This document shows, piece by piece, positions 1 through 1,121 of a stretch of DNA of 23,488 bases; position 1 is the stretch's first letter, and each line of letters opens with the position of its first letter. A model generated the notes under the pieces. The model was not told the DNA's origin. It saw nothing but the letters and a program-made list of their open reading frames with translations, and ran no database searches. The position numbers were made by a program, and so were the translations under genes. The stretch spans positions 1-23,488 of the forward strand of contig CALHCI010000191.1 of NCBI GenBank assembly GCA_937931165.1, in the 5' to 3' direction. Source of the stretch: an uncultured Granulosicoccaceae bacterium (GTDB lineage: Bacteria > Pseudomonadota > Gammaproteobacteria > Granulosicoccales > Granulosicoccaceae).

Positions 1-260
1 AGCGTCCATATATGGCATTAGCTGGAAGCGCATCCGTCTTATGTCTGATATGGGTTACCATAATCCACTACTCAATAATTTTTCCAGTCTCCCTACTTTT
101 ACCTGTGGATCAATAAACCCCCGAAAAATACTGTTGTTAAACCAGTTGAAGCTATGTGTATAGCTCAACCATAAGCACTACAACCTGGAACCACACTGTG
201 ACTCAGGTACAAATCCATTCAACACCTCATAAATTACCACCATTTATTTCCAATTAACCG

Positions 261-288
261 TTGACAGACATTCTCATATCTCTATAAT
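261..288 (+). promoter_or_regulatory. Near-consensus sigma70-type promoter: TTGACA (261-266), 16-nt spacer, TATAAT (283-288), with an AT-rich UP-like tract at 243-260
   Basis: Read directly from the sequence: ttgacagacattctcatatctctataat. No ORF lies downstream. An intrinsic terminator follows about 225 nt later. Confidence 0.5.
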
Positions 289-295
289 CTCGCCC

Positions 296-549
296 CCTGA
301 CTTAACGACTCAACTTCGAGCAACGAAATACAGTGAAACAACTTCAATCAACAATCTATGTCATCACAAGCGAGCTGCGCGTTATACACCTGCCTCTCGT
401 TGTCGATGCATGCGCACCTGTGTTTAACGCACGTGCGGTGCTCGTCAATAGTGGTGTTTATAGTTAATTTCGTAGCTTGAATATTCGCTGGCTACGTGGC
501 CAGCAGGATTTAAAAGCCCCGGTTGGTCTTCAACCGGGGCTTTTTTTTT
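296..549 (+). ncRNA. Candidate small RNA or leader transcript of about 250 nt, running from the predicted +1 to the terminator; identity unknown
   Basis: It sits between a consensus promoter and a 12-bp-stem/T9 terminator and has no credible ORF. The track ORFs 445..672(-) and 477..683(+) run through the terminator. Internal hairpins are present, for example gctggctacgtggccagc. It lacks the GGA-rich pattern of a CsrB-type RNA. Confidence 0.35.
514..549 (+). terminator. Rho-independent terminator: aagccccggttg/caaccggggctt, 12-bp stem, 5-nt loop, T9 run
   Basis: Perfect inverted repeat 514-525/531-542 followed by ttttttttt at 541-549. Confidence 0.8.
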
Positions 550-673
550 GGCCTCACCAAATGTTTTGGCAAGGCTTATCTCAGCGGTGCAGGTTCTTAA
601 CCCTGCCCTGTGCACAGCGGTGTTTTTCAAACATTCCAGCGGTGTATACAGAGGTTTTCTACGCCGATACATA

Positions 674-746
674 CCAGAGTTAGCTCAACCGGGAGAGCAT
701 CAGACAGTTAATCTGAGTGTTGCGGGTTCGAGTCCCGTACTCCGCG
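674..746 (+). tRNA. tRNA-Asn(GUU)-like cloverleaf, probably a degenerate pseudo-tRNA or tRNA mimic rather than a functional tRNA
   Basis: U8/A9 are present. D-stem is gctc/gagc with a GG-containing D-loop. Anticodon stem tcaga/tctga (5 bp) carries the loop cagttaa, with GTT at 707-709. Variable loop is 5 nt. T-stem gcggg/cccgt carries the canonical T-loop ttcgagt. Three features argue against function: position 33 is A instead of the near-universal U, the acceptor stem pairs at only 5 of 7 positions (ccagagt versus actccgc), and no CCA is encoded. Confidence 0.5.
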
Positions 747-1121
747 TCTTCCCTCATACGGAAACGCATAGCTTCCAAGGCTTAACTTGGTACAACGGCT
801 GGAAACAGCCAGACAGGAAGGCCCCTGTGGACGGGTTGCTCTGTACTGCTCAAAGGGTGGTGCGGTAAAACCTGTACACAGCACTGCGGTTGTTTTGTGT
901 GGCGATTAGGTTTATCGCCAGCCTGAGAGACTGTTGTGCGCTGCACGCAAATACGCTTTGTATTGGTCGGCGGTGCACACAGACTCAGGTCCGCGATGAA
1001 CTGCTTTGCCTCCCACAACTGCGGTGTGGGGTCTGACTTTTTTTAATTTTTTCATGTATCAGGATGGGCCTGATACGGATAAGGCCTGGAGACAGGTCAG
1101 AGGTAACCAGGAGATAGTAAA

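Follow-up and report, generated by a model that had tools for sequence, protein, structure and literature searches.

What occupies the 1.1 kb that precedes a slipin gene and the RNA ligase gene rtcB in a 23,488-nt stretch of DNA from an uncultured Granulosicoccaceae bacterium (contig CALHCI010000191.1; hereafter the window, to which all coordinates refer unless another contig is named)? An initial annotation, made from the letters of the window, had found no credible open reading frame (ORF) there and had proposed either a free-standing transcript of ~250 nt or a long leader with an attenuator. Comparison with related loci points to a structured RNA of ~480 nt (about 566-1045), of whose anatomy (a conserved 5' element, a tRNA-like element, an anticodon-like hairpin and a 3' domain) we are highly confident, preceded by a unit of promoter, leader ORF and terminator (Table 1). 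We lean slightly towards reading positions ~255-1121 as the noncoding front end of a self-contained RNA-repair module made up of promoter, leader, structured RNA, slipin and rtcB.

Comparisons were made at two depths: with a set of eight close relatives, whose slipin proteins are 72-89% identical and whose upstream neighbour genes differ, and with a sample of ~110 slipin loci drawn from genomes and metagenomes.

A tRNA-like element and its flanking RNA domains

The core of the structured RNA is a tRNA-like element at 674-746 with canonical D and T arms and an anticodon loop, CAGUUAA, that reads GUU. The initial annotation was right that structured elements are present, but it had missed this main one and its conserved flanks; the Rfam scan that it had proposed returned the tRNA match given in Table 1 and no other family, and only tRNA family matches were obtained both at gathering thresholds and at E up to 10. 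Canonical elongator tRNAs have a seven-pair acceptor stem, U33 and a conserved anticodon. In the window, by comparison, the acceptor stem is mismatched at C1-C72 and A3-C70, position 33 is A and CCA is not encoded, and almost every one of the eight close relatives has a different 7-nt anticodon loop. The D arm and the anticodon stem are invariant in the same relatives, and the T arm shows compensatory changes only.

The pattern extends well beyond the immediate family. Covariation was found in all four arms across 57 loci, and the anticodon was different almost everywhere in ~100 slipin loci, some of the loops being abnormal. Of the 106 loci with sufficient upstream sequence, 102 have a same-strand tRNA or tRNA-like element that lies 200-640 nt 5' of slipin, and the order of tRNA-like element and slipin, often with rtcB next, recurred in Gamma-, Beta- and Alphaproteobacteria and others. 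In distant members the acceptor stem is perfect and CCA is encoded, whereas in the window's family the acceptor end is shortened and mismatched and lacks CCA.

A class of such RNAs, b7a-tRNA, was predicted by Burroughs & Aravind 2016, as quoted in a bioRxiv preprint (10.1101/312249). The preprint describes a proposed cognate RNA of a Band-7 scaffold in RtcB-based repair, with no experimental validation by 2018 (10.1101/312249). With its cloverleaf fold, its same-strand position upstream of a Band-7/SPFH gene and its association with rtcB, the core element is, as judged from sequence and position, a member of this already predicted class.

Directly joined to the tRNA-like element is a 5' element of ~85 nt, which iterated nhmmer searches recovered in this arrangement in 81 loci from several bacterial classes. 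Its helices covary: 95.1% of cells were paired and 141 double changes were counted, compared with 42 in shuffles; none of 500 shuffles reached the native value, and slid controls gave 28-50%. A possible closing stem (578-582/651-655) was recognised by eye only. An Rfam search over the 5' element (E up to 10) gave no family match. Model R1, a covariance model that combines the 5' element with the tRNA-like element, had one match in the window, at 566-766 (118.2 bits, E = 2.8e-45).

On the 3' side, an anticodon-stem-loop-like hairpin shares G744-G746 with the 3' end of the acceptor strand of the tRNA-like element. Its loop in relatives keeps the form C-U-NNN-A-C/A, with a variable middle triplet, and a hairpin with a 7-nt N-U-NNN-R-N loop followed the tRNA-like element in 50 of 71 loci versus 11.5% of shuffles. 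Additionally, a T-arm-like hairpin lies 3' of the anticodon-like hairpin in many distant loci. The 3' domain comes next; 42 of its 81 predicted pairs show compensatory changes (RNAalifold, eight relatives), and its sequence similarity is confined to the window's own family. More generally, the gap between tRNA-like element and slipin is at least 244 nt long and stably folding in every locus, with sequence conserved within families only. A U-rich tail (~1038-1052) follows the closing helix of the 3' domain, and a scan placed a terminator-like site at 1011-1031; the tail could be a second, weaker terminator. An identity of nine nucleotides, CUGCGGUUG, to the 3' end of 16S rRNA at ~884-892 is not kept in relatives and is probably due to chance.

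Covariation across related loci, which the initial annotation had put forward as a check, was thus found in the 5' element, the tRNA-like arms and the 3' domain. Its claim that extensive structured noncoding sequence lies ahead of rtcB was likewise borne out, folding stability relative to shuffled sequence reaching z = -6.3 for 295-549 and z = -5.6 for 550-1060.

Table 1. Features of the slipin-rtcB locus and of the sequence preceding it (window coordinates)
Feature	Position	Strand	Details
Sigma-70 promoter	261-297	+	-35 TTGACA 261-266, 16-nt spacer, -10 TATAAT 283-288; 12/12 match
GC-rich discriminator	289-297	+	CTCGCCCCC; directly 3' of the -10 hexamer
Short leader ORF	333-467	+	GTG start, 44 codons, TAA stop 465-467
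Hairpin within leader ORF	413-437	+	Stem 413-422/428-437, loop UUUAA; RNAalifold, eight relatives
Post-stop segment and hairpin	470-504	+	Segment 470-478; hairpin GCUGGCU-ACGU-GGCCAGC 487-504; candidate alternative-pairing elements
Intrinsic terminator	512-549	+	Stem 512-544 (15 pairs, 8 G-C), T9 541-549
Conserved 5' element	578-655	+	CAGCGG motif; helix 1 586-594/601-608; helix 2 610-615/642-647
tRNA-like element, putative b7a-tRNA class	674-746	+	Rfam tRNA 48.4 bits (gathering score 29); ARAGORN Asn-GTT
Anticodon-stem-loop-like hairpin	744-767	+	8-bp stem, one bulge, 7-nt loop CUCAUAC 753-759; RNAalifold
Structured 3' domain	768-1052	+	GAAA-tetraloop hairpin 797-810; hairpin ~827-879; long hairpin 881-1027; closing helix 811-825/1028-1042
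Shine-Dalgarno sequence of slipin	1109-1113	+	AGGAG; 1109-2261 together with the gene
Slipin / Band-7 (SPFH) gene	1122-2261	+	Pfam Band_7, E = 2.8e-30
rtcB, RNA ligase gene	2291-3520	+	Pfam RtcB, E = 2.2e-128; gene calls on contig L001

Promoter, leader ORF and terminator

The structured RNA is preceded by a compact unit whose two ends had been correctly identified in the initial annotation as a consensus sigma-70 promoter and a very strong intrinsic terminator. By arithmetic, a perfect promoter match is expected by chance ~5e-4 times in 1.5 kb, both strands considered. Growth-rate-controlled promoters of stable RNAs typically have such GC-rich discriminators, and transcription is predicted to start at ~295-300. 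The terminator folds at -38 to -39 kcal/mol (z = -6 to -7). The initial annotation had staked its reading beforehand on conservation of these two signals in relatives, and both are kept in all eight: TTGACA, TATA(A/C)T and the discriminator CCGCCCCC are invariant or nearly so, the terminator is nearly invariant with its loop included, and the spacers diverge.

No coding capacity had been seen in the ~250-nt RNA between them, a claim contradicted by a short leader ORF whose frame is open for 44-47 codons in eight of eight relatives (the other two frames, 0-73 codons). The description of positions 1-1121 as ORF-free is accordingly right for conserved long ORFs, of which there are none, and wrong for this short one; a plus-strand frame reported as open over nt 2-172 stops at 161-163. 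Two further candidates were rejected. One is a plus-strand ORF of 106 amino acids (548-868), the length or frame of which shifts between relatives; the other is a minus-strand ORF of 75 amino acids (445-672), annotated as a gene in the ENA record of a sister contig, and its frame or length is likewise not kept in relatives. Running across both terminator and 5' element, the latter is most probably not a real gene.

The leader ORF has no Shine-Dalgarno sequence and is G-poor in its 5' part. Its changes among the eight relatives are mostly nonsynonymous, and codon position 1, not 3, varies least; because the peptide is in this way unconstrained, the pattern appears to be that of a frame that needs to be translated, not that of a functional protein. 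A Pfam/NCBIfam search of the leader peptide gave no family matches. In at least 20 distant loci an ATG lies 9-11 nt after the -10 hexamer and opens an ORF of 31-49 codons, which implies that leader mRNAs of this type would be leaderless; the N-termini of these distant leaders are recognisably related (M-[NK]-x-[QH]-[LQ]-x-[TN]-[FI]-[NY]). The abundance of Asn, Lys, Gln, His and Tyr codons in leader N-termini was considered as a sensor of anticodon-nuclease targets and set aside, since a G-poor, unstructured 5' end gives the same composition.

Several pairs of the hairpin at 413-437 show compensatory changes, and the hairpin at 487-504 is invariant in the eight relatives. The distance from leader stop codon to terminator 5' arm is 45-63 nt in most loci. 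Weak Rfam matches at 460-550 (Spot 42, NsiR1, CopA and others) were discarded, as they align to the terminator hairpin only.

Many distant loci have the same succession of a promoter with a 16-nt spacer, a GC-rich discriminator, 190-250 nt and then a terminator, which precedes the 5' element by 30-90 nt (by ~200 nt in some loci); the whole unit recurs in Competibacteraceae, Steroidobacteraceae, Methylococcaceae and others. Of the ~250-nt RNA initially proposed, the promoter-terminator unit is thus conserved in near and distant loci, but its noncoding status is not upheld. In the window ~17-30 nt separate the terminator from the conserved RNA; among loci this spacer differs in both length and sequence. 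A consensus scan revealed no promoter between the two (550-600), and no sigma-54, sigma-32 or other promoter was recognisable in 550-585 by scans and by inspection of the alignment.

Two probable arrangements of transcriptional control

In 21 loci, mainly betaproteobacterial, a divergent RtcR gene was found upstream of a module that likewise comprises 5' element, tRNA-like element, slipin and rtcB; the Burkholderia RtcR was confirmed by Pfam (RtcR and Sigma54_activat). A sigma-54 motif, TGGCAC-N5-TCGC in Burkholderia and Ralstonia, was detected in 11 of the 21 and lay directly 5' of the 5' element in the four that were inspected. Because the motif sits immediately upstream, it shows the 5' element as the probable 5' end of the operon transcript. 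One such locus is L050, with RtcR at 1720-3336 on the minus strand and the motif at about 3485-3502; L036, L048, L052, L058, L060 and others are similar.

The window contains no rtcR detectable by tblastn with the Burkholderia protein and no match in a search for the sigma-54 motif TGGCAC-N5-TTGC. In fact, none of the leader-type loci has rtcR or a sigma-54 promoter, the two arrangements being mutually exclusive in the sample, which shows the leader/terminator unit in what would be the position of the RtcR-dependent promoter.

A third kind of upstream sequence consists of same-strand arrays of 4-20 apparently normal tRNA genes directly 5' of the 5' element, as in L009 (396-2740) and likewise in L005, L008, L020, L022, L034, L039, L046, L053, L066 and L082. 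In these loci the array replaces the leader/terminator unit, and no promoter was found between array and 5' element.

Because the leader unit replaces RtcR/sigma-54 and no promoter follows the terminator, we interpret the promoter-leader-terminator unit, with moderate confidence and on grounds of anatomy and position, as an attenuator of transcription that is coupled to leader translation. The long leader with attenuator that the initial annotation had offered as its second option is closer to the comparative data, given the lack of a second promoter and the positional swap with sigma-54; attenuation itself is a prediction. When the 3' arm of the terminator is omitted from folding, the segment 470-478 (6-14 nt past the stop codon) pairs with 514-522 around the hairpin 487-504; removal of 462-480, the presumed footprint of a terminating ribosome, leaves the 5' arm of the terminator free. 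A comparison of masked with unmasked folding looked supportive but was biased by construction.

Several points weigh against the module as read in this way. With the stop-proximal segment shuffled, the 5' arm of the terminator was sequestered about as often as in the native sequence, and in only one of 25 loci did five or fewer of 100 shuffles reach native sequestration. The very strong terminator dominates thermodynamically. Leaders of the window's family start with GTG, ~38 nt from where transcription is predicted to begin, and have neither a Shine-Dalgarno sequence nor the leaderless ATG seen in other lineages; nor does the ORF show third-position excess or constraint at the amino-acid level. 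A second U-tailed helix (~1028-1052) stands before slipin, so that two read-through events would be needed, and both binding of the RNA by slipin and expression of such loci are predictions.

The slipin and rtcB genes

In the AlphaFold model of slipin (pLDDT 80.6), ~150 N-terminal residues are built of repeated beta-strand units and precede the SPFH domain; a long helix is also present. Foldseek searches with this model returned the cage-forming stomatin and HflK/C, and the longest alignments were to eukaryotic major vault protein (TM about 0.4-0.47). Owing to the N-terminal beta repeats and these longest structural alignments, the modelled build of the protein is vault-like.

The record's own gene call for rtcB starts at ~2324. 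In related loci rtcB lies within 4 kb in many cases, not in all; since many loci with 5' element, tRNA-like element and slipin have no rtcB nearby, the tightest linkage appears to be that of the RNA with slipin, not with RtcB. Loci with no rtcB within 4 kb downstream include L012, L014, L018, L026 and many metagenome loci (L084-L108). In some close relatives rtcB is followed by a gene for a ~615-residue protein with VWA and PrcB_C domains (L120 4680-6227, L124/L125 5591-7137). No such gene follows rtcB in the window, where a metallo-beta-lactamase-fold gene is found on the opposite strand (3641-4516).

Limits of the module and genomic setting

Window positions 1-254 are unconserved and noncoding. 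Homology with the eight relatives starts at ~255, just 5' of the -35 hexamer, and the block from this hexamer to slipin is conserved despite differing upstream neighbours. A module boundary in this place suggests that the whole unit is moved or exchanged in one piece. Positions 1-254 are also not shared with more distant relatives, whose modules occupy other genomic neighbourhoods.

The slipin protein of the window is encoded as well on a near-identical metagenomic contig, the strain variant L001, on which the upstream gap is ~1360 nt and hence longer than the 1.1 kb of the window. The nearest upstream gene on L001 ends ~240 nt before window position 1, and the upstream genes there (Pyr_redox_2 and HalD-like) are not related to RNA repair. 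Alignment of window 1-1130 with L001 2090-3210 revealed 14 noncoding differences, six in the leader unit and eight in or just after the 3' domain, with zero in 482-887; slipin had one difference and rtcB five. Given this distribution, the noncoding flanks appear to evolve faster than the coding genes, and the core of 5' element and tRNA-like element appears frozen.

The closest named relatives are metagenome-assembled Granulosicoccaceae (Gammaproteobacteria) genomes. A metagenome scan with the slipin protein yielded distant relatives only (≤51% identity), and BLAST against E. coli genomes and plasmids gave no match. As to copies of the module in phage, a pattern scan of viral contigs produced chance matches only, and the covariance model found none in 80 loci. 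The remaining genes of the window are ordinary metabolic and regulatory ones; Rsr, RtcA and RtcR were not found in it. A 172-aa ORF on the minus strand (16791-17309) has a SET (lysine methyltransferase) domain, a type seldom found in bacteria.

Proposed mechanism and alternative explanations

The rtc genes are induced by damage to translation or to tRNA (PMC7790460), and in Anabaena rtcB and a slipin gene respond to translational stress together with a tRNA operon, all under one repressor that stress relieves (PMC10272220, PMC8421152). For the module described here we infer co-transcription, attenuation, leader translation and an RNA-protein partnership along the following lines. A strong sigma-70 promoter, its GC-rich discriminator resembling those of stable-RNA genes, would start transcription at ~295-300, and the first ~250 nt, with 44-codon leader, alternative hairpins and terminator, would act as a ribosome-dependent attenuator. 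While translation is healthy, a ribosome would reach the leader stop codon and most transcripts would end at 549; if translation is impaired by damaged tRNA or rRNA or by ribosome inhibitors, more polymerases would read through. In this capacity the leader unit would stand in for the RtcR/sigma-54 control of the betaproteobacterial versions. Read-through would yield the ~480-nt structured RNA (about 566-1045) and then the mRNA of slipin and rtcB. By analogy with Y RNA and Ro60, the RNA may be the cognate partner of a cage-forming Band-7 protein and may help RtcB to act on broken tRNA-like substrates, as scaffold, decoy or bait. The hypervariable anticodon-like loops fit a role as bait or decoy, and equally fit a plain lack of constraint.

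The strength of the terminator, with its 15-bp stem and U9 always the thermodynamic winner, and the lack of significance in the shuffle test of the switch would also suit two independent units. In such an arrangement promoter to terminator would form a stand-alone small RNA of ~250 nt or a small-protein mRNA, and the tRNA-like RNA, slipin and rtcB would be transcribed from a separate promoter missed by simple consensus scans, for instance one of an alternative sigma factor. The hairpin 487-504 and the terminator are invariant including their loops, as would fit a protein- or RNA-binding small RNA, and a conserved TTGRCA-like block (566-571) lies just 5' of the 5' element. We regard this as unlikely, though a rival to be taken seriously: that block is followed by no -10-like element, and no promoter-like site was found in 550-600; the spacer between terminator and RNA is short and variable in length and sequence; in many lineages the leader unit is invariably found nearby on the 5' side and on the same strand, with RtcR/sigma-54 as its substitute elsewhere; and the unconserved peptide sequence disfavours a functional small protein.

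Two further explanations concern the RNA itself. Both Rfam and ARAGORN call a tRNA at 674-746, true-looking tRNA arrays lie directly upstream in many related loci, and distant members combine perfect acceptor stems with an encoded CCA, all of which could be taken to mean that the element is an ordinary tRNA-Asn gene or the decayed remnant of a tRNA array or of a tRNA-linked integration site, and the rest a functionless structured spacer. This is very improbable in view of the two acceptor mismatches, A33 in place of U33 and missing CCA in the window, of an anticodon loop that is hypervariable while anticodon stem and D arm are invariant and the T arm changes in compensatory fashion only, of a position and strand relative to slipin that are fixed in ~100 loci across classes, and of the junction with a covarying 5' element in 81 loci. 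A YrlA-type Y RNA working with a Ro60 (Rsr) encoded elsewhere in the genome we find hardly credible. YrlA does have a tRNA-like domain and adjoins rtcB in Salmonella (PMC4201824; 10.1101/312249), and the preprint notes occasional partner swaps between b7a-tRNA and YrlA (10.1101/312249). However, no TROVE/Rsr gene was found either in the 23.5-kb window or, on L001, in the 2 kb and two genes that precede it, a complete anticodon arm stands where YrlA has a long stem made by its two ends, and the Rfam matches at E up to 10 were to tRNA only, no search having been aimed at the Ro-binding motif.

Taking the single RNA-repair module further, one may imagine a self-regulating RNA-repair particle, with an RtcR-independent sensor of translation stress, a large tRNA-mimicking RNA, released on stress, whose hypervariable anticodon-like loops would be bait or decoy for anticodon nucleases, and a vault-like Band-7 cage that would hold this RNA together with RtcB; this is a tentative idea that we ourselves consider doubtful. 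If true, this would give bacteria an equivalent of the Ro/Y-RNA and vault particles that is controlled in a new way.

Repair operons with RtcB are found widely, and the Band-7-adjacent tRNA-like RNA has been a prediction on paper since 2016. The present locus and its relatives point to an RNA larger than predicted, with a covarying 5' element, a 3' domain and a second anticodon-like loop, and, in one lineage, to a unit of promoter, leader ORF and terminator in place of RtcR/sigma-54 control. No description of the 5' element, the anticodon-like hairpin or the 3' domain was found in the searchable literature, nor of the leader ORF with terminator or its exchange with RtcR/sigma-54. This swap of control leads to the testable hypothesis that translation status, read by the leader peptide, may switch on RNA repair, and the conserved elements supply exact coordinates and alignments ready for covariance models.

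Comparison with known systems

Ribosome-mediated attenuators (trp and his leaders; bmrCD, PMC4191407) resemble the window's leader unit in having a promoter-proximal short ORF with a poorly conserved peptide sequence, candidate mutually exclusive hairpins and a terminator before the body of the operon. In contrast to them, the leader has no run of regulatory codons and is apparently leaderless in many lineages, the operon begins with the gene of a structured RNA instead of a coding gene, and the switch is a candidate one here. The rtcBA operons under RtcR/sigma-54 in E. coli and Salmonella (PMC7790460) are of the same kind, and betaproteobacterial versions of the module have a divergent rtcR; in the window, however, a sigma-70 promoter, leader and terminator occupy the position of that promoter.

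The Salmonella rsr-yrlBA-rtcBA operon offers a parallel in which a noncoding RNA with a tRNA-like domain is encoded with rtcB beside a ring- or cage-forming scaffold protein, again with more than one structured RNA module upstream of rtcB. The window differs from the YrlA/YrlB systems in that its scaffold is a Band-7 and not a TROVE protein, no Rsr was found, the cloverleaf is full and control is not by RtcR. To the vault particle the likeness lies in the slipin model, which combines beta repeats at the N-terminus with an SPFH "shoulder" and a long helix, and in the small structured RNA encoded alongside; slipin has ~3 repeats versus nine in major vault protein, and the similarity is at the level of the fold, cage and RNA binding being putative.

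The Anabaena trn operon (PMC8421152, PMC10272220) differs in its control by the repressor TrcR and in its array, the window having a single degenerate tRNA-like element; it is alike in that additional tRNA-like genes are functionally linked to rtcB and a slipin gene, and many relatives of the module have same-strand tRNA arrays directly upstream. Closest of all in layout is b7a-tRNA, a tRNA-like element with variable anticodon directly upstream and on the same strand of a Band-7/SPFH gene, often then followed by rtcB. The window's family departs from it in a degenerate acceptor end (mismatches, no CCA) and the loss of U33, and also has a covarying 5' element, an anticodon-like hairpin, a 3' domain of ~280 nt and the leader/terminator unit.

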